Assembly (NCBI GenBank): GCA_903850915.1 | Contig: CAINMV010000023.1 | Span: forward strand, 51,769 to 115,768 | Direction of reading: 5' to 3' | DNA from: an uncultured Bacteroidota bacterium | GTDB lineage: Bacteria > Bacteroidota > Bacteroidia > UKL13-3 | DNA: 64,000 nt | Part shown: piece after piece, positions 766 through 61,778 of the stretch | How the letters are laid out: each line of letters starts with the position of its first letter | How positions within the stretch are numbered: the first letter of the stretch is position 1 | Program-made: the position numbers and the translations under genes | The notes under the pieces: model-generated | Told to the model about the DNA's origin: nothing | Databases searched by the model: none | The model's input: the letters and a program-made list of their open reading frames with translations, nothing else

Positions 766-3135
766 TTAAAATTTATAGTTAACACTTAATGCAGGAACCA
801 TAAATGGAATGAAACTGCGATAGTACGCTTGATATAAAGAGCCATTATAGCGTATTAATGCACCAGAAGGGTTAGCATTAAATAACACATTATAAAAAGA
901 AAAATCGTAACTAAAGTGTCTGGCATCTTCACTATGCGGAGTTTTACTGAATGAAAAGTCAACCCTCTTTGTACTAGGAAGCCTAACATTATTGCGACTT
1001 GGAAATTCCATAATTAACTGCCCATCCACATCATAATATTTACCCGTAGCCATGGTAAAAGGCTGTCCTGTTGCAAACACATACGTTAAGGCGAAATTCC
1101 ATTTCTTGTTTGGATTAAAGAGAACAACCAAAGTTATATTGTGACGGCGATCAAAATCGGTAGGGAAGTATTTGTTGAAATTAACGGTAGGAAATATTTG
1201 CATAGATTTCGATAAGGTATAACCAACCCATCCACTCCATTTCTCGTCAAATTTCTTTTGAAGCAACAATTCAAGACCAAAGCTATGTGACTTACCCTGT
1301 TCTACATTTTTTTCCCAATCGCTCAAAGAGATACTGAATATATCGGAAGCCGACTTTAGTGCATTAATATTATCTGAGTACTTATAATATCCTTCAGCAA
1401 TCAATTCAAATCCTTTTTTAAACGTATGACTGGAAGAAAAAACCACTTGCTGTGAGCGTTGAGGCTTAATATTTTTTGTAGAAGGTGCCCAATAATCCAA
1501 TGGCAGTCCAATATTAGTAACCAAGATACGTTGTATATATTGATGCACCATAGCGTAAGAGGCTTTCAATGTCCATCTTTTATTCACTACGAATCGTGCA
1601 GAAACCCGAGGCTCTGGATAAATAAACGCGGAGGAATCAACAAATAATGATGTTAAACGAAGGCCATAGTTTAATTTAATACGTTTTTTATAAACGATTT
1701 CATCTTCAATATACATAGCAATCTCATTGCTTTGAATCTCGCGTGAAGGCATTAAAGTGGTGTCAAATGGCGTAAATCCGGTTTGATAATACTTTAGATT
1801 TATAGTACTTGGCGTAAATTTGTGATTGATGTAATTCATTCCAAATTTAATGTTATGTTTGGAATTAGGAACATATTCAAAGTCGGCCTTAGCACCAAAA
1901 TCCCGAATGCCATTGTATAATTTAAAATCCAACTCCGTTGCCTCTTGCTGTGCAGTTGAATATGTAACGATATCTTGAGCATTAATATATACTGTTGTTT
2001 TATATCCTGTGTAATCAATCATAAAATTAGCGAATGTTTTATCGTTAAAAATGTGATTCCAACGAACTGTAGCTAATGTATTTCCCCATTTAAGTCCAGC
2101 CTTTAATGTGCTTTCTTCCGAGTAGCTAGCAACATTGAATTTCTGAGTCAATGCTGTATAAAGGTTGTCCATGCCTTTATAGAAGCTAAAGAAGACCCTA
2201 TCGTTTTGAGAAATGCGATGACTCAGCTTGAAATTAATATCATAAAAATAATAACCAAGGTCAGAACTTGTCGAGTCGTTATTAGATAGCTTTATGAGTG
2301 GGGCAATAAGTTTATCCAAATACGTGCGTCGAGCAGAAAACATAAAAGTTGTATTTCCTGATTTACTTAACGGACCTTCCAATAGCATTTTAGCAGAAAC
2401 CGTTCCTAATGAAAAAGATCCGGAAAACTTTTTCGAGTTACCTTCTTTCATAGAGATATCCAATACACTTGATAATCGTTCGCCAAAACGAGATGGAAAT
2501 CCTCCCTTGTAAAAAGACACATAATTAATGGCATCAGCATTAAATACAGAGAAGAAATTAAATGTATGGGAGACATTATATAACGGAGCGCCATCAAGCA
2601 AAATAAGATTTTGATCATTATTACCGCCGCGCACATATAAACCCGTTCCGGCTTCACTGCCTTTTTGCACCCCAGGTTGAAGTTGAATAACTTTTATTAC
2701 GTCGGGCTCTCCTAAAATTGCTGGGACACGTTTGATACGTGTTCCACTTAATTCTATTTTGCTAACCTGAGGATTATCCAATGTTTCATTCTTACGTTCT
2801 GCAATTATCATTACTTCATCCAATTGATTGTTTTCCGCTAATTGAACGTTTAGTGATAATTTAGGCGTTAATTTGATTTTAAACGCTTGTGTTTTATATC
2901 CTACATACGAAAAGTACAGATCAACGCTATCTCTTTTAGAAACAAATGTTAAAGTATAGAAACCATAATTGTTGGAAACCGTACCCGTTTTCTTGTCGAA
3001 AGAATAAACACTAACACCGATAAGGGCTTCTCCAGTTCTCGAATCCGTAATATAACCACTTATCGTATGATCCGCTTTTACCGTAAAGGCCAGGATGAGT
3101 ATAAAAAAAGAAAGAATAACTTGTTTAAATAGCAT
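766..3135 (-). CDS. TonB-dependent receptor with N-terminal carboxypeptidase-regulatory-like domain
   Basis: Signal peptide; ISGYITD..TGE.LIG domain; plug GEPDVIKVIQLQPGV, YVRGG, DQNLILLDG; C-terminal YKF. Confidence 0.93.
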   Translation of the reverse strand: MLFKQVILSFFILILAFTVKADHTISGYITDSRTGEALIGVSVYSFDKKTGTVSNNYGFYTLTFVSKRDSVDLYFSYVGYKTQAFKIKLTPKLSLNVQLAENNQLDEVMIIAERKNETLDNPQVSKIELSGTRIKRVPAILGEPDVIKVIQLQPGVQKGSEAGTGLYVRGGNNDQNLILLDGAPLYNVSHTFNFFSVFNADAINYVSFYKGGFPSRFGERLSSVLDISMKEGNSKKFSGSFSLGTVSAKMLLEGPLSKSGNTTFMFSARRTYLDKLIAPLIKLSNNDSTSSDLGYYFYDINFKLSHRISQNDRVFFSFYKGMDNLYTALTQKFNVASYSEESTLKAGLKWGNTLATVRWNHIFNDKTFANFMIDYTGYKTTVYINAQDIVTYSTAQQEATELDFKLYNGIRDFGAKADFEYVPNSKHNIKFGMNYINHKFTPSTINLKYYQTGFTPFDTTLMPSREIQSNEIAMYIEDEIVYKKRIKLNYGLRLTSLFVDSSAFIYPEPRVSARFVVNKRWTLKASYAMVHQYIQRILVTNIGLPLDYWAPSTKNIKPQRSQQVVFSSSHTFKKGFELIAEGYYKYSDNINALKSASDIFSISLSDWEKNVEQGKSHSFGLELLLQKKFDEKWSGWVGYTLSKSMQIFPTVNFNKYFPTDFDRRHNITLVVLFNPNKKWNFALTYVFATGQPFTMATGKYYDVDGQLIMEFPSRNNVRLPSTKRVDFSFSKTPHSEDARHFSYDFSFYNVLFNANPSGALIRYNGSLYQAYYRSFIPFMVPALSVNYKF

Positions 3136-3171
3136 AAAGAAATGGAAAAAAGTACTACGAAATTAATTTTA

Positions 3172-3179
3172 CAAAGTTA
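3172..3179 (-). promoter_or_regulatory. Bacteroidota -7 promoter element (TAACTTTG) for the TonB receptor
   Basis: Matches TAnnTTTG, 36 nt upstream of the ATG. Confidence 0.55.
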
Positions 3180-3510
3180 CATTAAAACTCAGACAACTTC
3201 TAGCGTTAGAAGGTTTGATAAAAATTGTGTTTATCCTTGGCATTAACATTCTATTAAGAAACTAAGGACATGACGATACGTTGATTTAAAGAAAGTAAAG
3301 ATAATCCTTTGTAAACTGTGATTTAATAATCCTAAAAATGATTTTATTTAGCCTTTTAAACTCATTTTAATTAATTAAAGCACCAAATTTAATTGTCGAA
3401 AAGACTACAAAATAAACTAGGGGATTGATATGATTGTGATGGAAAACCACATAACAATCTAATAATAAAGATATTGAGTCAAGTAAAAAAAAGGAGTTGG
3501 AAAACCTGTA

Positions 3511-3540
3511 AAACAAAAAAGAGGGAACAAGTCCCTCTTT
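3511..3540 (-). terminator. Intrinsic terminator for the candidate sRNA and/or glnA
   Basis: AAAGAGGGA-CUUGU-UCCCUCUUU followed by further U residues on the minus strand. Confidence 0.8.
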
Positions 3541-3590
3541 AATGAATAAAAACTTATGAAAAAAACAGTGTTAAGCTTACGCTTAACGAT
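3511..3590 (-). ncRNA. Candidate small RNA downstream of glnA
   Basis: TACATTTG at 3599-3592; hairpin GUUAAGC-GUAA-GCUUAAC; U-rich linker UUUUUUUCAUAAGUUUUU; intrinsic terminator. Confidence 0.6.
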
Positions 3591-3673
3591 ACAAATGTAC
3601 AATTAAATTATAAAAGAGAAAAAAAATATTGCATTTTTAATAAAAATCTAATATAAGCTGTCGTATATTTAAA

Positions 3674-5848
3674 TTAACGAATAAACAACATTTCTCTGTA
3701 TTTAGGCAACTGCCAATAGTTGTCGGCAACAATAAATTCCAACTTATCTACCTCCTCACGAATCGAATCAAAATAAGGCTTTACCTTGTCGCAATATGTC
3801 ACAGCTTTGCGATGGGTGTCAACCATTTTATTGGCCTTCATACGTTCTATAATCATCTTATCCACCTGAGTTTTTATGGACGTGACTCTGTCGTTGATTT
3901 CGTTAATAATTGCCATTTGAGATGTCATTTTACCCTTTGGAATCCCGATAGATTTCATACCTGCAACACTATCAATAAGCACTTTTTGATATTGCAAAGC
4001 AGCTGGAATAATGCTACTATATACCATTTCACCCATAATACGGGCCTCTATTTGTACCTTTTTAATATATGTTTCTAACATAATTTCATGACGTGCATGC
4101 AATTCGCGTTTATTAAAAACATTGTTGTCAATAAACATTTTTTCAGATTTTAAAGAAACATAAGCATCTAAAGCTTTTGGTGTTGTTTTTATATTACTCA
4201 ACCCTCTTTTAGCAGCCTCCTTTACCCATTCGTCGCTATAGCCATTGCCTTCAAAAATAATATTCTTAGATTTTTTTATGTAACTGCGCAAAACTTCAAC
4301 AATGGCTACCTCTTTCTCCTTACCTTTCCCTATTGTAGCATCTACATCCACTTTAAATTGTTTTAACGTTTCTGCAACTATAGTGTTCAACACCGTCATG
4401 GCATTGGCTGAGTTGGCGCTAGAACCCACCGCCCTGAATTCAAATTTATTACCTGTGAAGGCAAATGGTGACGTACGATTTCTATCCGTGTTATCTAATA
4501 AAATTTCAGGAATTTTATCAATTTTAATACTTCCTATGCTTCGCGCACCACTATCTGAAGTGCTTTTTTCTAAATCGTTTAGAACATGATGTAATTGCGT
4601 ACCAACAAAAACGCTCATAATTGCTGGTGGAGCCTCGTTGGCACCCAAACGAAAGTCGTTGGCGGCACTTGCAATACTTGCTCTTAACAAATCAGCATGA
4701 TCGTGAACTGCCTTAATTACATTCACAAAAATAGTAAGGAACAAAAGATTACTTTGTGGTGTTGCACCAGGCGACAATAAATTGATTCCTGTGTTAGTGA
4801 TTAAACTCCAGTTATTGTGCTTGCCGCTGCCATTAATACCAGCGAAAGGTTTTTCATGTAAAAGCACTTTCAATTTGTGTTTACGGCTGATTTTATCCAT
4901 CAAATCCATAAGCAACTGATTGTGATCCACCGCCAAATTAATTTCTTCAAACATTGGAGCACATTCGTATTGTGCCGGGGCCACTTCGTTATGTCGCGTT
5001 TTTAGTGGAATACCTAACTTAATAGCCTCTTGTTCAAAATCTACCATAAAGCTATGAATACGCTCTGGGATAGCACCGAAATAATGATCATCTAATTGTT
5101 GTCCTTTGGCTGGTGCTGCACCAAAGAGGGTTCTTCCACTTAGCATTAAATCTGGTCGGGCATTAAAGAAAGCCTCATCAATCAAGAAATATTCTTGTTC
5201 AATACCTAGGGAACTCCAGGTTTTTGTGATTTTCTTATCAAAATATTGGCAAACGGCTACAGTTGCCTTATCAACGGCATTTAGTGCCTTAAGTAAGGGT
5301 GTTTTATAATCGAGCGCTTCGCCAGTATACGATACGAATACGGTTGGAATACAGAGTGTATTGCCACTTTCGTATTCCATAATAAATGCAGGAGACGATG
5401 GATCCCAGGCTGTATATCCGCGGGCTTCGAATGTATTTCTGATACCTCCACTTGGAAAAGAGGAAGCGTCGGGCTCTTGCTGCACAAGTGCCTTACCCGT
5501 AAAGATTTCAATTGCATTGCCATTTAAATCTGGCTCAAAAAAAGCATCATGCTTTTCCGCGGTGGTTCCTGTAAGTGGTTGAAACCAATGGGTATAATGC
5601 GTCACATTCTTACTTAAAGCCCATTGCTTCATCCCTTCAGCTACATCGTTGGCCAAATTACGATCGATTGGCATGGATTTATCAATCGCATTCTTTATAG
5701 CCTTAAATGCTGCGGGCGAACAGAACTTTTTAATCGCTGCATGATTAAAAACATTAGAAGCATAATAAACAGTAACCTTATCTTTTGGTTTTGTTACTGA
5801 TACAGGCTCGCGGCTCTGAATTGTAGAAATAATGGTAGAACGTGACAT
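3674..5848 (-). CDS. glnA: Glutamine synthetase type III
   Basis: THYTHWFQPLTG.TAEKHD, EPDASSFPSGG, HEKPFAGINGSGKHNNW, DRNRTSPFAFTGNKFEFR. Start placed at ATG 5848 because a -7 element TAATTTTG (5892-5885) lies inside the longer ORF. Confidence 0.96.
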   Translation of the reverse strand: MSRSTIISTIQSREPVSVTKPKDKVTVYYASNVFNHAAIKKFCSPAAFKAIKNAIDKSMPIDRNLANDVAEGMKQWALSKNVTHYTHWFQPLTGTTAEKHDAFFEPDLNGNAIEIFTGKALVQQEPDASSFPSGGIRNTFEARGYTAWDPSSPAFIMEYESGNTLCIPTVFVSYTGEALDYKTPLLKALNAVDKATVAVCQYFDKKITKTWSSLGIEQEYFLIDEAFFNARPDLMLSGRTLFGAAPAKGQQLDDHYFGAIPERIHSFMVDFEQEAIKLGIPLKTRHNEVAPAQYECAPMFEEINLAVDHNQLLMDLMDKISRKHKLKVLLHEKPFAGINGSGKHNNWSLITNTGINLLSPGATPQSNLLFLTIFVNVIKAVHDHADLLRASIASAANDFRLGANEAPPAIMSVFVGTQLHHVLNDLEKSTSDSGARSIGSIKIDKIPEILLDNTDRNRTSPFAFTGNKFEFRAVGSSANSANAMTVLNTIVAETLKQFKVDVDATIGKGKEKEVAIVEVLRSYIKKSKNIIFEGNGYSDEWVKEAAKRGLSNIKTTPKALDAYVSLKSEKMFIDNNVFNKRELHARHEIMLETYIKKVQIEARIMGEMVYSSIIPAALQYQKVLIDSVAGMKSIGIPKGKMTSQMAIINEINDRVTSIKTQVDKMIIERMKANKMVDTHRKAVTYCDKVKPYFDSIREEVDKLEFIVADNYWQLPKYREMLFIR

Positions 5849-5984
5849 TTTTTTGAAATGAAAATGGGTTGAGTTTTCTGAGCACAAAATTATTTTTAAA
5901 ATTGACAATAAACATCAATTAAAATCAACAAAAACAAAAAGCAATGTGGAAAAACCTTGAAAATGTTATTATTGTACCCTCTAT

Positions 5985-8391: not shown

Positions 8392-11300
8392 ATGAATTTG
8401 AAACGTAAAGCATTATCTTTAATTGTTTTAATGACCTTGGCTTTTTCTTTAAAAGCCAATAATATCAAAGGAATTCATAGAATTACTATTGGAATCCACG
8501 TTGATTCTCCGGCAGTAGATTCAAATAAAATCTACAAAACCAACATCAAGTTAAAGTCGCCTAAAAACCTTACGACCACAACAGAATTAGATACATTAAG
8601 CGGTGGATTTGTTAGCAGAACACGCTTAGGTTCCAACCCTATTGGCCCTCCTCGTTTCTTAACCTTGGATGAATACCTAGATGAAAGCAGAAAACAAGGC
8701 GTTAACGATTATTTCAAAAAAAGATCCTTACAAGACGAATTCGTAAAAGGTGGTGGATTGCTTCCTTCGTTAAATTTGCCTCCTAACCCCATCACTAGTT
8801 GGCTTGGAGGAACAGTAGATTTGCATCCACAAGGCAGTGCCGAACTTATTTTTGGAATTAACAGCAACAAAATAAACAATCCAGCACTAAGTCCTAAACA
8901 ACGTCATGTAACGCAGTTTGACTTTGACCAAAACATCCAATTAAATCTTACTGGAAACATTGGTGATAAAATTAAGATTAACGCCATCAACGATACCAAA
9001 GCTATTTTCGATTTTGACAATATCTTCAAATTAGATTACAACGGTAAAGAAGATGAGATTATTAAAAAAATTGAACTAGGTAATGTTGGGCTTCCTCTAA
9101 ACAGTAATCTAATCAACCCAGGGCAATCACTTTTTGGTGTAAAGTTAGCGTTGCAATTTGGCAGACTTAATGTAACAACGATTGTCACCCAAAACAAAGG
9201 GAAGTCCACCACCACTGAATTTACTGGTGGAGCACAAACCACCAATTTCGATATCACCGCAGACAATTACGATGCCAACCGCCATTATTTCTTGGGTCAG
9301 TTTTTTAGAGAACATTATGACCAATGGCTCAATCGAATTCCGTTGGTGAACTCGGCAGTACAAATTAACAGAGTAGAAGTATGGATTACCAATAGAAGTT
9401 CGACCTATTCTGAGGCCCGCGATGTGCTTGCCTTTACAGACTTGGGAGAAGGCAATCCGTTCAATCCAACAAATATAACCTCTAAAAGCTACAAAGCCAC
9501 TGATAACTATAATAACAATCTTTACAGTAAAATTTATAACGATAAGAATTTACGTAATTCGAATAACGTTATTAATCAACTTAGTAGCGCTTATACCGAT
9601 ATGGTTTCAGGAGTTGACTATCAACTCCAGACTTATTCGAAACGACTAACAGAACAGGAATATACCTTAAACTCAAAGTTAGGATACATCTCTTTAAATT
9701 CCCCATTAAACAATGGAGAAGTATTGGCTGTAGCTTACGAATACACCTATAATGGCCAAGTTTTTAAAGTAGGTGAATTTAGTACAGAACTTCAGAACGA
9801 CTCTAACTCAAACAAGGTGCTTTTTGTTAAATTACTGAAAGGGTTCAACGTTCGTCCAGATTTACCGACATGGAAGTTGATGATGAAAAATATCTATTCC
9901 TTGAATGCATATTCGGTGCAACAAAAAGACTTTAAACTCAATATCATTTATAAAGATGAAGCCACTGGAACAGAATTCAACTTCATCCCTGCCAAGTCGG
10001 AAGAAGCTGTTTATCAAATCCCTTTAATAAAAGTACTCAATCTTGATAACGTAAATTCACAGCAAGACAATGTAAGTGACGGTGTTTTTGACTTTATTGA
10101 AGGAGTGACCATATTATCTTCCAATGGTCGAATTATTTTTCCATGCCTTGAGCCCTTCGGAAGTTATCTTTCCACAACTAAAAAAATTCTAGACCCGGTT
10201 ACCTTAAAGACGTATTCATTTCAAAGCCTATACGATTCCACCAAATTTGCTGCACAACAAGATGCGCGTCACAATCGTTTTTATTTGAGAGGAAGCTATC
10301 AGGGAAGTGCTAGCAATGAGATCTCGTTAAATGCATTCAACATTCCAAAAGGATCGGTAAAAGTTACCGCGGGCGGAGCTCCATTGCGAGAGGGAGTGGA
10401 CTATAGTGTAGATTACCTTATTGGAAAAGTGAAAATTATAAACCTAAGTTTACTGCAATCTGGTGCAGTAATTAAAGTAGTAGCAGATAATAATAATCTT
10501 TTTAATACTCAACAAAAAAGTTTAATTGGAACGCGATTAGATTATAAAATCAGCAAAGACTTTGTGGTTGGAAGCACCTTCCTTAAGTTAACAGAACGCC
10601 CACTAACCCAAAATGTATCGGCTGGAGACGAGCCATTAGCAAATACAATTATTGGAGTTGATGGAACCTTTAAATCTGACTCTCGTTTTATTACAAAATT
10701 AATTGATAAAATTCCCTTTATTCAAACCAAGGAGATATCAAGTGTGACCTTAGCCGCAGAATATGCCAAAATAATTCCAGGAGTGCCTCGGTCGTTAGAC
10801 AAAACCAAAAAAGGATTTTCATATATCGACGACTTTCAAGGTGCAGAAGCGCCATACGATTTGCGTACACCAAATGCTTGGTATACCGCAAGCACACCGC
10901 AAGGAAACCCAACAGAATTCCCAACTGGCGGCAGTCATGGACTAGAAAATAGATTTAATACTGCACGATTGTCATGGTATTTTGTTGATCAATTTACCTT
11001 CTTTGGAGGTACCCCGCCATCAAATATTTCCAATGCCGTTCTCGATGATCCTTACCAACGCTTAATTTTACAGAAAGAGGTTTATCCAGACAAACAATTG
11101 GCACAAACCACGGCAACCAACCTACAAAGTTTAGATATTGCCTTTAACCCCAACCGCCGTGGTGCTTATAATTTTAATGTTGATGGACTTAATAGTGATG
11201 GAACTTTAAAAAACCCAAAGAATAATTGGGGTGGCATCATGCGAAAAATTGAAACCAACGATTTTGAAGCAGCCAACATAGACTATATCAGTGTGTGGGT

Positions 11301-14300
11301 AATGGACCCTTTTTACAAAAACCCTGGCAACAGTGGCGATTTGTTGATACAACTTGGAAATGTATCCGAGGATATTTTACCAGATGGAAGAAAAAGTTTC
11401 GAACATGGATTGCCAAAATCAGCGCAAAAAACACATGTAGATACCACTACTTGGGGTATTGTTTCTAAGCTTTCTCCTATTGTAAATGCTTTCGATAATG
11501 ATGAGACAGCCCGTGAATATCAAGACATCGGTTTAGATGGGTTAAATGATATAGAAGAACGAACCTTTTACGATACCTCTTATGTTGCCAAGGTGAAAGC
11601 TAAATTTGGCCTTAATTCCACTGCCTATTACAATGCCGAGCAAGATCCAAGTGCTGATAACTATAAGTATTATTTAGGTCCAGACCAGGATAATGCCAAT
11701 GCAAACATTATCGATCGTTACCGTTTTATTAACAATGGAGATGGTAATTCTCCTACCAATGCACAATCCAAAGCCAAAACAGGCTATGATAACTCAGCAT
11801 ATACATCTACACCAGATGATGAAGATATCGATCGCGACTTTTTGATGAATACCAACGAAGACTACTTCCAGTATCGCGTTAAGTTAGATCCGAATATGTT
11901 AGTTCCCGGACAGAACTTTGTTACCGACAAGCAGCTGCGTACGGTTGCTGTTAGCAGCGGAACGCAACAAATTTATTGGTATCAATTAAAAATTCCGGTT
12001 CAACAATTTGAGAAAAAATTCGGTAGTATCAACGACTTTAAATCTATTCGATTCATTCGTATGATATTAAAAGGCTTTCAAGATAGTGTGGTATTGCGTT
12101 TAGGCGAATTTCAATTGGTTAGAAGTGAATGGCGCAAGTGTACCCAATCCTTGCGTGACCCTATTCAAAACATCCCAAGCAGTGGTAAAGGTAATACTCG
12201 CTTTGATGTAACTACAGTAAATATTGAAGAAAACAGCAAAAGACAACCTATAAATTATGTTATACCTCCGGGTATAAATCGTCAGCTCGACCCTAGCAAT
12301 CCACAATTTGTGCAGCAAAACGAGCAGTCGCTTTCTATGATTGTTTGCAATATGGAAGATGATGATTTGCGTGGCGCCTTCAGAAATACCCAATACGACT
12401 TCAGAAATTACAAGCATATTCGCATGTTCACACATGCCGAGGAGTTTCAAGGACAAGCATTAAATGACGACGAGCTTTGGGCTTTCATTCGATTGGGCAT
12501 CGATTATACCAATAACTATTACGAGTATAGTTTCCCTCTAAAAGTTACCAGAGCTGGTCAAAATACAGCAGAGCAAGTATGGCCAGATTACAACCACATG
12601 GACTTGGTCATTGAATATCTTGCTGCACTCAAGCAAGAGCGAGAGTTAAACTCAGCCTCACTTACGCAGCCGTATTATTCGAGTTTACATCCGGGCTATA
12701 AAATTGTTGGAACACCCGATATCAGTTCCTTAAAAATAATTTGTATTGGAGTTAGAAACCCAAAAGACGATGGACGAAGCCAATGCGGTGAAGTTTGGTT
12801 TAATGAGCTCCGATTGGAAGAATTCAACAACAATGGGGGTTGGGCAGCAGAGGGAAGAGCCGATATAAAACTTGCTGATTTTGGAAATGTCAGACTCTCT
12901 TCTCATATTCATACCTATGGCTATGGAGCTTTGGATAAAAAACTGAATGAAAGAAGTCGCGATGATGTGAGAGGATATGCGTTTCAGTCGAATTTCGAAT
13001 TAGGTAAATTTTTTCCACTCAAAGCAGGTGTAAATATCCCATTCGCACTTAGCTATAGTGAAGATGTAATTCGCCCGCATTTTAACCCTTTAAACCCGGA
13101 TGTGCCGCTAGAACAAGCTTTGCGCACAGCGGGAGCTTTAAATAAAGAACTTGAAGCACAAATAAGATCAGCTGCCAACGACTACACTAGTCGTTATGGA
13201 TTAAACTTCATTAATATGCGCAAAACGCATATTGGCCCAAAAAGAGCTTTACCATGGAGTATTAGTAATTTTACCTTCTCTTACCAGTATAATAAAATTT
13301 ACAAGCATAATCCTACGGCATCGCGTATAGAGAATAAAAGTTGGAGAGGAATGGTAACCTATACCTATGCCTTGCCTAATGCTACACTAGCTCCATTTAC
13401 AAAACTTAGCAAATCGAAATGGTTAAAACTTATAACCGACTTCAATGTAAATTTACTTCCAAGTACTTTTAATTTCCGATTGGAAACGGATCGTAGGTAT
13501 AACGTATTACAGATGCGTAATACAGATTTTCGCAATAACAATAACGCTATTGTAGAGATTTTACCAACCTACGACAAAGATTTCACCATGAACCGAATCT
13601 ATGATTTGCAGTGGGCACTCACCAAATCTTTAAAGCTGAATTACAATGCAAACAATGGTTCACGAATTGCCGAACCACGTGGAGCCATAATTACCCAAGA
13701 GCAGCGCGATTCTATTCAGAAGAACTTCTTTACAGGTGGGGAAGTACGTAAGTTTAATCAGAATATTGGATTAAACTACCAAGTACCTTTCATGAAGTTT
13801 CCATTAACCGATTGGATAACAACGAACGTCAACTATAATATTAGTTATGATTGGACAGGTGCCGCTTTAGCATTGCTTCGCGACTCGCTAGGAAATCAAA
13901 TTCAGAATTCAAAAAACCTACAGATACAATCTCAATTGAATTTTATTCAGTTCTACAATAAGTCGAAGTTCCTGAAAAAAATAAATGAGCAAAGTGCAAA
14001 AGCTAATTCCAATGTACCAGCGGCACAAGAAGAAGAGGTGATTTCAAAAGGAAAGGGAAAGGGAAAATCGAAAGCTAAAATGACTGCCAAGCAAAAACGC
14101 GAAGAAGAAAAACGTATTGCAGAAGCGAAGAAAAAGAAAAAAGAAGAAGAGTCGAAATATTATCCTGTGGCACTGCGCGTGGTGGTTAAAGCCATTACGG
14201 GCGTAAAAAACGCAAGCTTCAACTACTCTGTAAATCAGGGCAGTGGTGTACCGGGTTTCCTTCCCGCTCCCAACAATTTCGGACAAAACATTTCATTACT

Positions 14301-15597
14301 AGCTCCAGGCTGGGATTTTATTTTTGGGAATCAAATTGACACCAATTACTTATATAATTCCGCACGTAAAAATTGGATCAGCAACCGTTCGGAAATGAAC
14401 AACCCCTATTCTATTACACGAACCACAAAAACGGATGGTCGTATAACCTTTGAGCCTCTTACCGACTTCCGAATTGACATTTCCTTCAATCGCTCACAAG
14501 CATTTAATGAATCAGGTATTTTTAAGTTTGACACTGTTGAGCAGTTTAATGATTATAGAGTTCAAAATCCGCTGCAAGGAGGAACATTTAGTACGAGTTA
14601 CATCATGTTAGGTACCGCATTCCAAAAAGATATTGTAACCAATAGCACCAACACTTCTCCTATCTTCAAACAATTTGAAAACAATAGATATACCATTTCT
14701 CAGCGTTTACAAACCGCGGAAGGAAGAACCACAGGTGTAGATTCAATTACAAACTATCCAAGAGGATATAGTAAGCAGTCACAAGATGTTGTATTATTAG
14801 CCTTCCTTTCCGCATATTCTGGCAAAAATGCAACGACTTTTTCGCTGGATCGTTTCCCTACAATTCCATTGCCTAATTGGCGTTTTAATTATAACGGACT
14901 GTCAAAATTAAAATCGGTGCAGAAGTATTTTAACGGCATTACTCTAACTCACAGTTATTCATGTACGTATAGCACTCAATATAACTCGAGTGTAGTAACC
15001 GGTATTGACTCTGCGCATGATTATATCCCGAATTTAATTATCCGTGGAGTTTCATTAAGTGAGCGACTTGCGCCATTAATTGGTGTTGATATCACCACAA
15101 AGAACAGTATGACCCTTGGTGCTCGATATAACCAAGATAGAACATTGGCAATGCAAATTGCATCCAAATCATTATCGGAAAGCAAAACGCGAGACTTTAC
15201 ATTTAGCTTTGGCTATCGTGCCAATCAAATATATTTACCAATCAAATATCAAGGCAAGCAAATATTCCTAGAAAATGATATGAATATTAAGTTAGATATT
15301 AGTTTTAGAGATAATCTTGTAATTGTTAGACGCATGGATGTTGGTGCTGACCAAGCCGCTAGCGGCAGTAAAATCGTTACGCTTCGACCAAATATTGACT
15401 ATATGATGAATCAGAATTTGAACTTGCAGCTCTTCTTTGAAATGAATATCACCAATCCGCATGTGTCGAATCAATTTCCAACTAACATTTCCAAAGGAGG
15501 AATTAAAATTCGTTACACACTCGACGAGAATTTCTTGAAAAACCAAACACAAAGTGGAGGAAAAAAATCGAAAAAAGGGACAAAACAGATGTTTTAA
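8392..15597 (+). CDS. sprA: T9SS outer-membrane translocon SprA/Sov
   Basis: 2401 aa; FDFDQNIQ, G.EDEIIKKIELGNV, YDANRHYFL, LGNVSEDILPDGRK, GEVWFNELRL motifs. Confidence 0.96.
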   Translation: MNLKRKALSLIVLMTLAFSLKANNIKGIHRITIGIHVDSPAVDSNKIYKTNIKLKSPKNLTTTTELDTLSGGFVSRTRLGSNPIGPPRFLTLDEYLDESRKQGVNDYFKKRSLQDEFVKGGGLLPSLNLPPNPITSWLGGTVDLHPQGSAELIFGINSNKINNPALSPKQRHVTQFDFDQNIQLNLTGNIGDKIKINAINDTKAIFDFDNIFKLDYNGKEDEIIKKIELGNVGLPLNSNLINPGQSLFGVKLALQFGRLNVTTIVTQNKGKSTTTEFTGGAQTTNFDITADNYDANRHYFLGQFFREHYDQWLNRIPLVNSAVQINRVEVWITNRSSTYSEARDVLAFTDLGEGNPFNPTNITSKSYKATDNYNNNLYSKIYNDKNLRNSNNVINQLSSAYTDMVSGVDYQLQTYSKRLTEQEYTLNSKLGYISLNSPLNNGEVLAVAYEYTYNGQVFKVGEFSTELQNDSNSNKVLFVKLLKGFNVRPDLPTWKLMMKNIYSLNAYSVQQKDFKLNIIYKDEATGTEFNFIPAKSEEAVYQIPLIKVLNLDNVNSQQDNVSDGVFDFIEGVTILSSNGRIIFPCLEPFGSYLSTTKKILDPVTLKTYSFQSLYDSTKFAAQQDARHNRFYLRGSYQGSASNEISLNAFNIPKGSVKVTAGGAPLREGVDYSVDYLIGKVKIINLSLLQSGAVIKVVADNNNLFNTQQKSLIGTRLDYKISKDFVVGSTFLKLTERPLTQNVSAGDEPLANTIIGVDGTFKSDSRFITKLIDKIPFIQTKEISSVTLAAEYAKIIPGVPRSLDKTKKGFSYIDDFQGAEAPYDLRTPNAWYTASTPQGNPTEFPTGGSHGLENRFNTARLSWYFVDQFTFFGGTPPSNISNAVLDDPYQRLILQKEVYPDKQLAQTTATNLQSLDIAFNPNRRGAYNFNVDGLNSDGTLKNPKNNWGGIMRKIETNDFEAANIDYISVWVMDPFYKNPGNSGDLLIQLGNVSEDILPDGRKSFEHGLPKSAQKTHVDTTTWGIVSKLSPIVNAFDNDETAREYQDIGLDGLNDIEERTFYDTSYVAKVKAKFGLNSTAYYNAEQDPSADNYKYYLGPDQDNANANIIDRYRFINNGDGNSPTNAQSKAKTGYDNSAYTSTPDDEDIDRDFLMNTNEDYFQYRVKLDPNMLVPGQNFVTDKQLRTVAVSSGTQQIYWYQLKIPVQQFEKKFGSINDFKSIRFIRMILKGFQDSVVLRLGEFQLVRSEWRKCTQSLRDPIQNIPSSGKGNTRFDVTTVNIEENSKRQPINYVIPPGINRQLDPSNPQFVQQNEQSLSMIVCNMEDDDLRGAFRNTQYDFRNYKHIRMFTHAEEFQGQALNDDELWAFIRLGIDYTNNYYEYSFPLKVTRAGQNTAEQVWPDYNHMDLVIEYLAALKQERELNSASLTQPYYSSLHPGYKIVGTPDISSLKIICIGVRNPKDDGRSQCGEVWFNELRLEEFNNNGGWAAEGRADIKLADFGNVRLSSHIHTYGYGALDKKLNERSRDDVRGYAFQSNFELGKFFPLKAGVNIPFALSYSEDVIRPHFNPLNPDVPLEQALRTAGALNKELEAQIRSAANDYTSRYGLNFINMRKTHIGPKRALPWSISNFTFSYQYNKIYKHNPTASRIENKSWRGMVTYTYALPNATLAPFTKLSKSKWLKLITDFNVNLLPSTFNFRLETDRRYNVLQMRNTDFRNNNNAIVEILPTYDKDFTMNRIYDLQWALTKSLKLNYNANNGSRIAEPRGAIITQEQRDSIQKNFFTGGEVRKFNQNIGLNYQVPFMKFPLTDWITTNVNYNISYDWTGAALALLRDSLGNQIQNSKNLQIQSQLNFIQFYNKSKFLKKINEQSAKANSNVPAAQEEEVISKGKGKGKSKAKMTAKQKREEEKRIAEAKKKKKEEESKYYPVALRVVVKAITGVKNASFNYSVNQGSGVPGFLPAPNNFGQNISLLAPGWDFIFGNQIDTNYLYNSARKNWISNRSEMNNPYSITRTTKTDGRITFEPLTDFRIDISFNRSQAFNESGIFKFDTVEQFNDYRVQNPLQGGTFSTSYIMLGTAFQKDIVTNSTNTSPIFKQFENNRYTISQRLQTAEGRTTGVDSITNYPRGYSKQSQDVVLLAFLSAYSGKNATTFSLDRFPTIPLPNWRFNYNGLSKLKSVQKYFNGITLTHSYSCTYSTQYNSSVVTGIDSAHDYIPNLIIRGVSLSERLAPLIGVDITTKNSMTLGARYNQDRTLAMQIASKSLSESKTRDFTFSFGYRANQIYLPIKYQGKQIFLENDMNIKLDISFRDNLVIVRRMDVGADQAASGSKIVTLRPNIDYMMNQNLNLQLFFEMNITNPHVSNQFPTNISKGGIKIRYTLDENFLKNQTQSGGKKSKKGTKQMF

Positions 15598-16409: not shown

Positions 16410-19400
16410 ATGATACGTTTAAAAATTCTACTTGTAATATTCTTTTTTACCACAGCAACAATAGCTCAGAAATCATATTTTAGTGGTGAATTTAGAAGTA
16501 TAGAAAATCCATATTATTGGAAAAATAGAGTTCCTTTTACTGGATATTGGCAACAAGACGTTTCCTATCAAATAAAGGCAACACTATATGATAGTTTGGA
16601 TATGTTGGATGGAGAGCTAACGCTAACCTATTTCAATAATTCACCTGATGATTTGAATGAGGTATTCTTTCACTTATATCAAAACGCCTTCCAACCGGGC
16701 AGCTACTATGATAATCTTCAAAAGAATAATAATATAAAAACCGAATATGGCAAAAACGAAAAAGACAGAAAAGATGAAGTAGTGGAGTCTGTCCTAGTAA
16801 ATGGCGTCATGGTGAATCCTACCTTCGATAATACCATCATGCGTGTTAAACTTCCAAATGTACTTCATCCCAATGGAAATATCGTTTTTAAAATAAAATT
16901 CAAAAGCTACTTCGGTGATGGTGGCAACGTGCGACGTCGGATGAAAATGTTTCGTGACAACTGGGGAAACAAACAATATGATGGGGTTCATTGGTATCCT
17001 CGTATCTGCGTTTATGACCGTAAATTCGGATGGGAAACAGACCAACATCTTGGGCGAGAATTTTATGGCGATTATGGAACCTATGATGCGGAACTCACCT
17101 TGCCATCAAAATATGTGAATGAAGCCACTGGAGAGCTTATCAATGAAAAAGAAGTCTTACCCGATGACCTTCGTGCTAAATTAGATGTAAAAAACTTCGC
17201 GACCAAAAAAGCGGATGTGAAACCTGAATCTATTATGCCAACACAAGGCTGGCGTACCTGGAAATACCATGCTGTTAATGTGCACGATTTTGCATTTACC
17301 TGCGACCCAACCTATCGCATCTCTGAGTCGTCGTGGAATGGAATTCGATGTATTGGCATTGTGCAAGAACCACATGCCGCGGGTTGGCAAAATAGTGGTG
17401 TACTTGTGGCCGACATAATTAAAACATACAGCAACGATATTGGCATGTATGCCTATCCAAAGATGGTAGCTGCAGACGCACGCGATGGCATGGAATATCC
17501 GATGCTTACGCTCGATGGCGGATCTAGCCCTAGTTATACTAATTTGCTCAGCCATGAAATAGGCCACAACTGGTTCTTTGGTATGGTTGGAAATAATGAA
17601 ACGTATCGTGCTTGTCTTGACGAAGGATTTACTCAGTTTTTAACTTCATGGTATATGGTTAAACAAGAGCAACGCAAAGAAGCCTTAGTGAAACAAAATG
17701 AAGGCCTGTCGGTTGTTAAAAAGAAGACCTTGGGTACTCGGTATTTAAATCGCTATTCAACTTCGATTCCACAACGCGAGAGTGTAGCTTATATGGGATA
17801 TTTAATGGATGCAATAAACGATAATGATGAAGTAATTAACCAGCATAGCGATGGATTTAATGGAGCCGTAAATCATGGAGGTGGCTATCGTCACGTATAT
17901 TACAAAACAGCAACCATGCTATGGAATTTGCAATATGTGCTAGGAGATGAATTGTTTCTAGCTACGATGCAAAATTATTTCAATGAATTTAAAATATGTC
18001 ACCCCTATGTAGAAGATTTCCGAAATAGTGTTATTCACTATACGCATGTGGATTTGAATTGGTTTTTCGACCAATGGTTCGAAACCAACAAGCACATTGA
18101 CTATGCCATTAAAAGCATCAAAAATAGCAAAGGCGACAGCTTTGAAATTACCTTTCAGCGCATTGGGCGCATGCAAATGCCTATCGATTTCACGGTAAAA
18201 ACGAACGACGGAAAGAACTTGGATTTCCATATTCCCAACACCTATTTCGTTAAAAAAACTACCGCTACAATATTGCCTTTTTGGAAAGGATGGGATCTTT
18301 TACAACCAACATATACCTGTACTATTTTAGTTCCAGGCGGTATCGATGACATAGAAATTGATCCAACGCATCGTTTGGCTGATATCAACTTTATGAACAA
18401 TACATTACGTTGTCCGGTGAAATTCAACTTTGATCATCAATTGCAAAATCCGAACGACATGTACCATTATATATTAAAATGGCGCCCCGATTTTTGGTGG
18501 AATGGTTTGGATGGCATAAAAGTTGGCGTGCATGCTAATGGTGGTTATATAAATAGATTTCATGTTTGGGATGCTACGCTTTGGTATAATACAGGAATGC
18601 TCCAATCAAATGAAATGCAATTTCCAATCAATTATTCGGTGAACTACCGAAATGCGATTGGAAAAAACCTGGGGTGGAATTTCTCTACACGATATCTGGA
18701 TGGTTTATTTGCCAATAAATTGGGGATATCAAAAACCAACAACGACTATACTTTCTACGCTAATTTCAATACATTGTACCGCACGCAAATCTTCTATTAT
18801 AAAAATGGCAAACAAACAGACTCGCATTTAATATATCCTGAGCTTTGGAGAGAACAAAAATGGAATAACTTTATTAATATCGGAATCAACAAACCATATA
18901 GTTACAGCCATGGTTATGCATCACAGAATTTAAATTTGCGCACAAGTGCTTTAGGTAGTGATTATCTATATGGTAACCTTAGTTATACCCATATTGACAA
19001 TATTGCAATAAAAAAACTAGATTTCAAAGTTCGAGTTTTTGGGCAACTCGGATTTAACACACCAGCACCAGAAAGCGCTCTGATGCTTGCCGGTGCTAAT
19101 AATGAGGAATTAATGGAAAGTAAATTTACGAGAAGTATTGGTTTTGTTCCGAATTCATGGTCTGGATTTGGCTCAGAAATCAATCATTTCCAACAAGGTG
19201 GAGGTTTAAACATACGCGGGTTTGCAGGTTATAAAGCTCCCGTTGGCGACACTACAAATCAACATTTACTATATAAAGGTAATAGCGGGTTAGCCGTAAA
19301 TGCTGAACTAGACCTCGATCGTTTATTGAAATTCGAACCAAAATTTCTACGTAATTGGTTGCATTTAGATTTTTATGGTTTTGCGGATGCAGGTTATATT

Positions 19401-61606: not shown

Positions 61607-61778
61607 GAATGATATTGTTAAAAATATGAAAAAAAGGGGACTTTGATTTAATGTAAAAAGACATAATTTGCAATCAAAACAAGTGCTTCATATAAAATAA
61701 CTTAGTATACTTGCAGTAAGTAAAAACTAAAAAATTAGCACTACTTTAATTCATTAATAACAAAACAACAGCAATAAA

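Follow-up and report, generated by a model that had tools for sequence, protein, structure and literature searches.

A multicopy small RNA family with an invariant single-stranded linker in an uncultured freshwater genus of Bacteroidia

Behind the glutamine synthetase gene glnA of an uncultured bacterium from the Bacteroidota lineage UKL13-3 lies a short intergenic element that carries the hallmarks of a small RNA (sRNA) gene. It was studied within a stretch of 64,000 nucleotides (hereafter the window) of contig CAINMV010000023.1. Judged by conservation and covariation, we regard it as settled that the element is a genuine sRNA gene, that it is multicopy, and that it is not specific to glnA. 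Its copies seem to constitute a new family within a known kind of sRNA, remarkable mainly for paralogs that are apparently split between primary-sigma-type and sigma54-type promoters. How the RNA acts is a matter of graded probability, and base pairing in trans is the mode that we favour. The genome to which the window belongs (G000; 2.94 Mb in 37 contigs, 37% G+C) was analysed together with six other genomes of the same genus (G001-G006).

The whole locus is read from the minus strand, at window positions 3599-3510. The stop codon of glnA (TAA, 3676-3674, read directly from the strand) and the -7 promoter box TACATTTG (3599-3592) are separated by 74 nt, and the box fits the TAnnTTTG consensus of the primary sigma factor of Bacteroidota. 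It is followed by a 5' hairpin, GTTAAGC-GTAA-GCTTAAC (3587-3570), with a 7-bp stem (GUUAAGC/GCUUAAC) and the GNRA loop GUAA, which was recognised by reading, by the terminator scan, and by folding. Next comes a U-rich linker of 29 nt, ACTGTTTTTTTCATAAGTTTTTATTCATT (as RNA ACUGUUUUUUUCAUAAGUUUUUAUUCAUU; 3569-3541), containing two CAU motifs, with seven consecutive U ahead of the first; it is essentially unpaired in the single-sequence fold. A Rho-independent terminator, AAAGAGGGA-CTTGT-TCCCTCTTT (3540-3518), closes the gene with a 9-bp stem (3540-3532 with 3526-3518), the loop CUUGU and a U-tract, TTTGTTTT, that reaches to 3510. The predicted sRNA spans 3587-3510 (~78 nt), and with the covariance model of the family, R1, the window copy scores 104.8 bits at G000:C23:55278-55359, which corresponds to window positions 3510-3591. 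Both hairpins were recovered by the terminator scan (2 sites vs 0.5 +/- 0.7 in shuffled sequence), and the 88-nt RNA has a fold energy of -24.2 kcal/mol (z = -4.86), a stability reached by none of 200 shuffles. The -7 element, GNRA hairpin, open linker and terminator described for this strand in the initial annotation were thus all located. The terminator scan also scored the 5' hairpin together with the U-run behind it, ACUGUUUUUUU (window 3570-3587, minus strand), as terminator-like, and transcription may end there prematurely after ~30 nt.

Single motifs of the locus carry little weight. ATGAAAAAA, for which positions 761 and 46802 had been named at the outset, does occur at both places on the minus strand, as well as at 61626 on the plus strand and at 3556 on the plus strand, antisense to the sRNA itself; since four matches compare with 5.9 +/- 2.5 expected by chance, these occurrences are unremarkable in themselves. 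It is the paralogs, the orthologs and the covariation that lift the feature beyond chance. A BLAST search with the 106-nt element returned two further near-identical copies from G000, making three in this genome at unrelated loci. They are situated at C34:69945-70026 (BLAST span 69949-70026) and C5:17893-17978 (BLAST span 17892-17952), were found by R1 as well, and each possesses TATATTTG upstream of a 5' hairpin that is likewise closed by a GNRA tetraloop (GCAA, GAAA). The paralog on C5 combines a wholly different stem sequence (GAATTTAC/GTAGATTC) with an identical linker. All six other genomes of the genus contain copies too (2-5 BLAST matches and 4-6 matches to R1 in each), and the 18 copies across the seven genomes that make up subfamily 1 score 71-108 bits.

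The helices are preserved by compensatory change. In an alignment of 20 copies (19 distinct), which was fitted to R1 and therefore leans towards that model, 95.4% of the pair cells hold standard pairs and 13 of 16 pairs have changed on both sides; none of 500 shuffles matched the observed pairing and covariation values, and controls with slid partners were 37-62% paired. For each of the seven pairs of the 5' hairpin, the family includes changes in both partners (94.7% of cells paired), and so it does for six of the nine terminator pairs (95.9%). RNAalifold independently arrived at the identical two hairpins with the linker unpaired between them. Compensatory changes as expected of a structured non-coding RNA gene are hence found, with helices that are kept amid flanks that cannot be aligned. 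The linker itself is identical in 17 of the 18 subfamily-1 copies, the only deviation being a T-to-C change in G004:C3, so that the UUUCAUA core, whose loss in relatives would have spoken against the initial annotation, turned out to be conserved. Conservation and covariation together also back the claim of a discrete sRNA gene of ~75-80 nt, and with covariation of this strength a curated RNA family would be warranted.

The promoter box is as constant as the helices. On reading by eye, all 18 subfamily-1 copies have a TAnnTTTG box that precedes the hairpin by 4-5 nt, against a frequency of one per 1362 strand-bases in G000. This box spans positions -12 to -5 in Flavobacterium psychrophilum, according to the description in PMC9723704, and if the G at 3592 is taken as -5 by that spacing, the predicted transcription start falls on 3587, where the hairpin begins. 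The outermost pairs of the stem covary, which marks them as part of the RNA. The hairpin would thus begin at +1 and shield the 5' end. The window copy has the TAnnTTTG box and shows no TGGCAY-N5-TTGY (sigma54-type) box, hence nothing of the -24/-12 arrangement of Qrr-like sRNAs; by its motif, it is driven by a housekeeping-type promoter.

Outside the genus the trail ends quickly. BLAST detected no true copy in the 17 genomes scored from other genera of the taxonomic family; the one match, in G014, was discarded as the beginning (ATGAAAAAAACAGT) of an open reading frame (ORF) on the opposite strand that looks like a lipoprotein gene. Among 112 other genomes of the taxonomic family and 150 of the class, R1 gave only matches of 27-33 bits, which on inspection proved to be duplicated ends of genes or terminators beside genes that start with TTTTTCAT, and G048 (L060) holds the sole possible candidate for a distant relative outside the genus. 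An exact 21-mer was found at 15 loci among 185,579 species genomes, 14 of them in six metagenome-assembled genomes (MAGs) of the genus, while the remaining one stands alone in an Aminicenantes MAG. A degenerate pattern had 55 matching loci in JGI metagenomes, of which only two (L120, L129) represent the family and the others unrelated sequence. Scans of Rfam 15 gave no matching family for window positions 3000-4000 (E up to 10) or for the sibling loci described below (E up to 1); the best hit (E 0.98), to the L20 leader, covers the terminator alone and was rejected. The BLAST and Rfam comparisons proposed with the initial annotation have therefore yielded two paralogs, copies in all six related genomes, and no known family. 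In the full-text literature, judged from titles and the beginnings of abstracts, we encountered no description of the family or of sigma54-dependent sRNAs in Bacteroidota. A mobile element was rejected as the source of the copies, given that they occupy orthologous positions in several species and that no repeats or transposase were seen near them. The element belongs to a vertically inherited multicopy sRNA family that, as far as the searched genomes go, is limited to a single uncultured freshwater genus of Bacteroidia. Two divergent members, G004:C99:499-579 (L027) and G003:C34:405-484 (L085), score 51-52 bits and show no TAnnTTTG box that could be recognised clearly, so that they represent either copies in decay or paralogs that have diverged.

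Two sibling subfamilies extend the family beyond the housekeeping-type promoter. Subfamily 2, a longer sRNA with a related seed, is present in G001-G006 (L026, L074, L028, L029, L025, L084), and in five of these genomes it is divergent from a conserved gene of 1131 aa (tblastn). A degenerate copy persists in G000 (C24:67501-67578, minus strand), where the seed has lost ~15 nt and the terminator is incomplete. Subfamily 3, a short sRNA of ~55-60 nt, occurs in G006, G001, G003, G005 and G002 (L078-L082, in this order) behind TTGGCA[CT]AAT-N2-TTG[TC]; it has its seed near the 5' end and no 5' hairpin, and BLAST did not find it in G000. Both sibling types were missed in that genome by BLAST, and R1 alone recovered the degenerate subfamily-2 copy. 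Common to the two subfamilies is an upstream TGGCA[CT]-N5-TTG[CT], the -24/-12 pattern of sigma54, and from this motif only we infer that they are sigma54-dependent. The sibling seeds CACUUUUUUUUCAUUAGUUUUUGUUUCAUU and AGUUUUUGUUUUCAUAGUUUUUGUUCAUUA share UUUUCAU, AGUUUUU and UUCAUUA with the seed of the window copy, and siblings behind promoters of the sigma54 type suggest that one seed is used under different signals. RpoN and an NtrC-type activator are encoded in G000, and the sigma54-type motif occurs there 44 times, eight of these outside called ORFs. One of these eight boxes, TGGCACTTTGATTGTA at C29:332788 on the plus strand, lies 53 nt upstream of a dnaK-like gene (C29:332841-334742; N-terminus MGKIIGIDLGTTNS). 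This box suggests a sigma54-controlled chaperone regulon paralleling that of F. psychrophilum, which is described as comprising chaperones and envelope functions (PMC9723704).

The window copy is placed between two genes of the same orientation. Its upstream neighbour glnA (3674..5908, minus strand) encodes a type III glutamine synthetase (Pfam GSIII_N 5.5e-74, Gln-synt_C), and its downstream neighbour (766..3135, minus strand) a TonB-dependent receptor (TBDR) with the Pfam domains CarbopepD_reg_2 and Plug. Five species (G000, G001, G003, G005 and G006), the glnA proteins of which are ~87% identical, share the gene order glnA-sRNA-TBDR. When the glnA-TBDR intergenic regions of these five species are aligned, only the -7 box and the RNA can be matched, while the flanks are unalignable; by our own count, 76 of the 83 columns of the RNA gene from box to U-tract are invariant. 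The terminator scan found no terminator-like site between the glnA stop codon and the sRNA in G000, and because nothing of this kind separates them, the sRNA terminator probably ends the glnA transcript as well; in G005, a terminator-like hairpin stands between the two. The paralogs of G000 follow a cinA-like gene at 82 nt and a transglutaminase-like gene at 62 nt, and these positions, too, are orthologous in other species by synteny. Each of the three copies of G000 follows a gene of the same orientation at 62-83 nt and precedes another at 0-375 nt, the genes that come after them coding for the TBDR, an SLT transglycosylase, and an unknown protein of 470 aa. Further off, at ~5 kb from the sRNA, the window contains an ORF of 2401 aa with a signal-peptide-like start (8392-15597, plus strand; G000:C23:60160-67365).

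With regard to function, the architecture of the RNA, a host without Hfq and without Shine-Dalgarno sequences, and the precedent of the FopS sRNAs of Bacteroides (PMC11697453) make base pairing in trans the most likely mode of action. Hfq was not found in G000, and a single gene for an RRM_1 protein was (C37:169817-170026). An independently transcribed sRNA of ~78 nt that pairs in trans and chiefly blocks initiation regions is the explanation towards which we lean, at slightly better than even odds. The sRNA would be transcribed from its own TAnnTTTG promoter, and the linker would serve as a seed that pairs with purine-rich or A-rich stretches of mRNAs. Translation-initiation regions would be the most plausible sites, with the module of seven U and CAU lying over the AUG and the A/G-rich codons that follow it. 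Such pairing would block initiation in a host that has no detectable Hfq and whose initiation is not led by Shine-Dalgarno sequences, a mode of action that has been reported for both FopS and GibS of Bacteroides.

The register of the first CAU agrees with such a role. When the first CAU is set on the AUG of the genes of G000, on average 13.8 of the 29 positions match, against 13.26 +/- 0.26 for composition-matched shuffles with the CAU fixed, and only 3 of 200 shuffles reach this value. In the same register, 143 of 2219 ATG genes offer at least 10 consecutive pairs across the start, G-U pairs included. Exported-looking proteins account for 48% of the 139 genes with a run of at least 10 pairs that includes the start codon, compared with 33% of the rest. 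Beyond this, target prediction lends no support that base composition would not equally give. A wobble-aware Smith-Waterman search of both genome strands singled out, besides the sRNA genes themselves, only the leader of radC as better than all six shuffle maxima (score 42 vs 35.5-41). The match covers 34 nt of the 5' untranslated region (UTR), from -35 to -2; the stretch (G000:C10:59674-59707, minus strand) is 86% antisense to the linker and directly precedes the start of radC (C10:58977-59672). Possible readings of this stretch are a target restricted to the lineage, a sponge, and what is left of an inverted sRNA copy. Next in line is the leader of an orphan gene for a protein of 1062 aa (C1:26897-30085), where a 25-nt near-complement of the seed lies just upstream (G000:C1:26866-26890, plus strand). 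Finally, in a scan corrected for accessibility, which was run without a shuffle control, energies of -10 kcal/mol or lower were predicted for 41 of 2229 genes. As a side observation, the orphan gene is followed by a gene for a protein with a type IX secretion system (T9SS) tail that starts ATGAAAAAAACA, and ~1.6 kb further by an NtrC-type sigma54 activator (C1:33070-34434).

A considerable number of results weigh against the blocking of initiation regions. Duplex energies over 2231 start regions average -8.3 kcal/mol, which is weaker than the -9.2 kcal/mol of 2010 coding interiors and falls inside the range of 10 shuffled seeds, and the second CAU gives no register enrichment on AUG contexts. 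None of the best candidates is widely kept: the radC site is missing from the six orthologous leaders and restricted to this species, the 1062-aa orphan has neither a Pfam family nor an ortholog in the genus, and the top accessibility match lies inside a coding region upstream of a sugar-transferase gene and is kept in one of six genomes. A search of the seven genomes for a 22-nt anti-seed with up to three mismatches returned the sRNA genes and four scattered sites, against six for the reversed control. The secretome is no better as a target class, with no enrichment among 121 T9SS-tail proteins and none of 22 Plug-domain receptors reaching -8 kcal/mol (median -2.76 vs -3.93 for the rest). Moreover, the invariance of all 29 nt exceeds the 7-12 nt that a seed typically requires, and in the divergent members G004:C99 and G003:C34 the first CAU is lost, CAA or CCU having taken its place. 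Nor does prediction point to the genes on either side, the start of the TBDR ranking 1704 and that of glnA 1059 among 2229. Of the anti-start-codon core proposed in the initial annotation, the register match of the first CAU thus stands, ahead of 197 of 200 shuffles, whereas the second CAU gave a null result and duplex energies are no better than controls. Likewise, the idea that many envelope-protein starts are occluded keeps a modest enrichment of exported proteins, but T9SS cargo and TBDRs show none and no target is conserved. Independently of these searches, G000 has a very large secretome, in which the T9SS C-terminal sorting domain is matched 119 times (115 of them above the Pfam threshold), and 23 Plug-domain receptor matches.

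Expression data are compatible with several readings. Four lake metatranscriptome runs, available as assembled contigs of depth 2-6, contain 8-28% of the words sampled from window positions 3200-4400, and their contigs lie mostly over glnA. One contig of 151 nt (3546-3697) joins the 3' end of glnA to the seed and could be read-through RNA or DNA carry-over; no contig covers 3200-3527. Because contigs give no ends, strand or level, they neither show nor exclude an sRNA transcript, which is a further point that the proposed independent transcription has to contend with.

The lack of a conserved complementary target beside 29 invariant nucleotides would also fit a protein-binding decoy or sponge. 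The linker, as two tandem copies of a motif of the form G-U5-7-(A)UUCAU-(U)A-A, would then titrate a protein that binds single-stranded RNA, for instance the RRM_1 protein or ribosomal protein S1, and we entertain this tentatively as a minority possibility. It accords with the two-module repeat that is kept in all three subfamilies, with the single RRM_1 gene in a genome where Hfq was not found, and with the report that the Bacteroides protein RbpB binds FopS and GibS where they are single-stranded and counteracts FopS (PMC11697453). Yet RbpB, in that same account, modulates an sRNA that itself acts by base pairing, and the protein is not the only target of that sRNA (PMC11697453), and titration leaves the match of the first CAU register to AUG contexts unexplained.

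A rather unlikely variant of the base-pairing model is a generic regulator of initiation regions, in which the tandem modules of U-run and CAU, as mimics of the complement of an AUG with purine-rich early codons, would work as a broad translational brake when the sRNA is induced, not limited to a few particular mRNAs, with some paralogs induced through sigma54 and enhancer-binding proteins and others through the primary sigma factor. The ~6% of genes with at least 10 pairs across the start bear on this variant. If true, it would suit Bacteroidota without Shine-Dalgarno sequences and would be the first sRNA family of the phylum split between sigma54-type and primary-sigma-type promoters that share one seed.

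The arrangement of the three G000 copies between co-oriented genes might also point to a module acting in cis, be it a promoter-proximal leader or attenuator of the downstream gene or a conserved terminator cassette of the upstream one. That glnA has no other terminator in G000 and that a metatranscriptome contig joins its 3' end to the element would fit, but we consider a cis role decidedly unlikely. No antiterminator fold is apparent, as both the minimum-energy and the consensus structure consist of two hairpins; the identical linker precedes unrelated genes at variable distances, and the spacer to the receptor gene cannot be aligned between species. The sigma54-type sibling on C24 of G000 lacks a co-oriented downstream gene altogether, and a terminator cassette would need no conserved -7 box, GNRA hairpin or invariant linker.

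The initial annotation had compared the locus with GlnZ and linked it to nitrogen status. GlnZ is an enterobacterial sRNA from the 3' UTR of glnA that is processed from the glnA mRNA and has no promoter of its own. The likeness lies in the position directly behind glnA on the same strand, which is kept in five species, and in the terminator that is probably common to both in G000, where no other site intervenes and one contig bridges gene and element. On its defining feature, however, the analogy fails, since the sRNA has its own promoter, conserved as a box in 18 of 18 copies, and its near-identical paralogs follow genes unrelated to nitrogen (cinA-like, transglutaminase-like). In addition, a terminator-like hairpin separates glnA and sRNA in G005, Rfam gives no match below E 0.98, the start of glnA is no predicted target (rank 1059), and the glnA genes differ, being type III here and type I for GlnZ. 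Release of the RNA from the glnA 3' UTR is accordingly very improbable, and nothing ties it to nitrogen. The plus-strand ORF of 16 codons that the initial annotation had named as its rival, with an ATG-AAA-AAA start at 3556 opposite the sRNA, can be dismissed almost entirely as the functional product: the 18 copies encode 17 distinct peptides of 10-50 aa that agree only opposite the invariant part of the RNA, the substitutions are those that preserve RNA pairing, and promoter box and U-tract are found on the minus strand.

Among known sRNA systems, Qrr1-5 of Vibrio are sigma54-dependent multicopy sRNAs with a common seed. Here, too, short paralogous sRNAs possess a conserved seed and two related subfamilies are situated behind TGGCAY-N5-TTGY, whereas the window copy has a promoter of the primary-sigma type, Hfq was not found in the host, and the two groups belong to unrelated phyla and share no sequence similarity. 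The closest working analogue, taken as an analogy in which membership is not established, is the FopS family with the related GibS. FopS is described as a multicopy family of Bacteroides thetaiotaomicron with promoters of sigmaABfr, a length of 65-70 nt, and a single-stranded seed followed by a terminator; it represses susC-like mRNAs, blocking translation of susC in the region of the start codon, and has the RRM-1 protein RbpB as its antagonist (PMC11697453). The common traits with the published FopS and GibS are a host among Bacteroidota that encodes an RRM_1 protein and has no detectable Hfq, several near-identical paralogs per genome, each with a housekeeping-type promoter, a size of ~65-80 nt, an unpaired seed plus terminator, and one family member in 3'-UTR position (PMC11697453). 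The same layout of multiple copies, housekeeping-type promoter and single-stranded seed with terminator was found in our family, at ~78 nt and with the seed behind a 5' hairpin.

The differences are equally clear. The seed of FopS is reported at the 5' end (PMC11697453), while in the window sRNA it is internal, behind the GNRA hairpin, and only in subfamily 3 near the 5' end; 14 copies of FopS (PMC11697453) compare with three in G000; and pairing with susC-like starts is not predicted here, with 0 of 22 Plug-domain genes at -8 kcal/mol or better. Furthermore, some siblings have sigma54-type promoters, and the host is an uncultured freshwater bacterium. The scans of Rfam 15 gave no match to FopS or GibS, a comparison made without direct alignment to FopS sequences and with a release whose inclusion of the FopS model is unconfirmed, although a FopS consensus was deposited in Rfam according to PMC11697453. 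The sRNAs described from F. psychrophilum resemble ours in their TAnnTTTG promoters and in a conservation at about genus level (PMC9723704). One of them, Rfp18, is presented there as a single-copy, strongly structured RNA that pairs via a stem-loop, in contrast to the multicopy sRNA with an open linker found here (PMC9723704).

The result, obtained from sequence alone, is an sRNA family with good support in a freshwater lineage that has no cultured member. To our knowledge, nearly all that has been learned about riboregulation in Bacteroidota comes from gut Bacteroides and a single Flavobacterium. The use of the family is limited in practice by its uncultured host, and its range is narrow. For comparison with FopS, its value lies in an invariant single-stranded seed of 29 nt, the multicopy layout, and siblings behind sigma54-type promoters, and the family could help to test how sRNAs act without Hfq or Shine-Dalgarno pairing.

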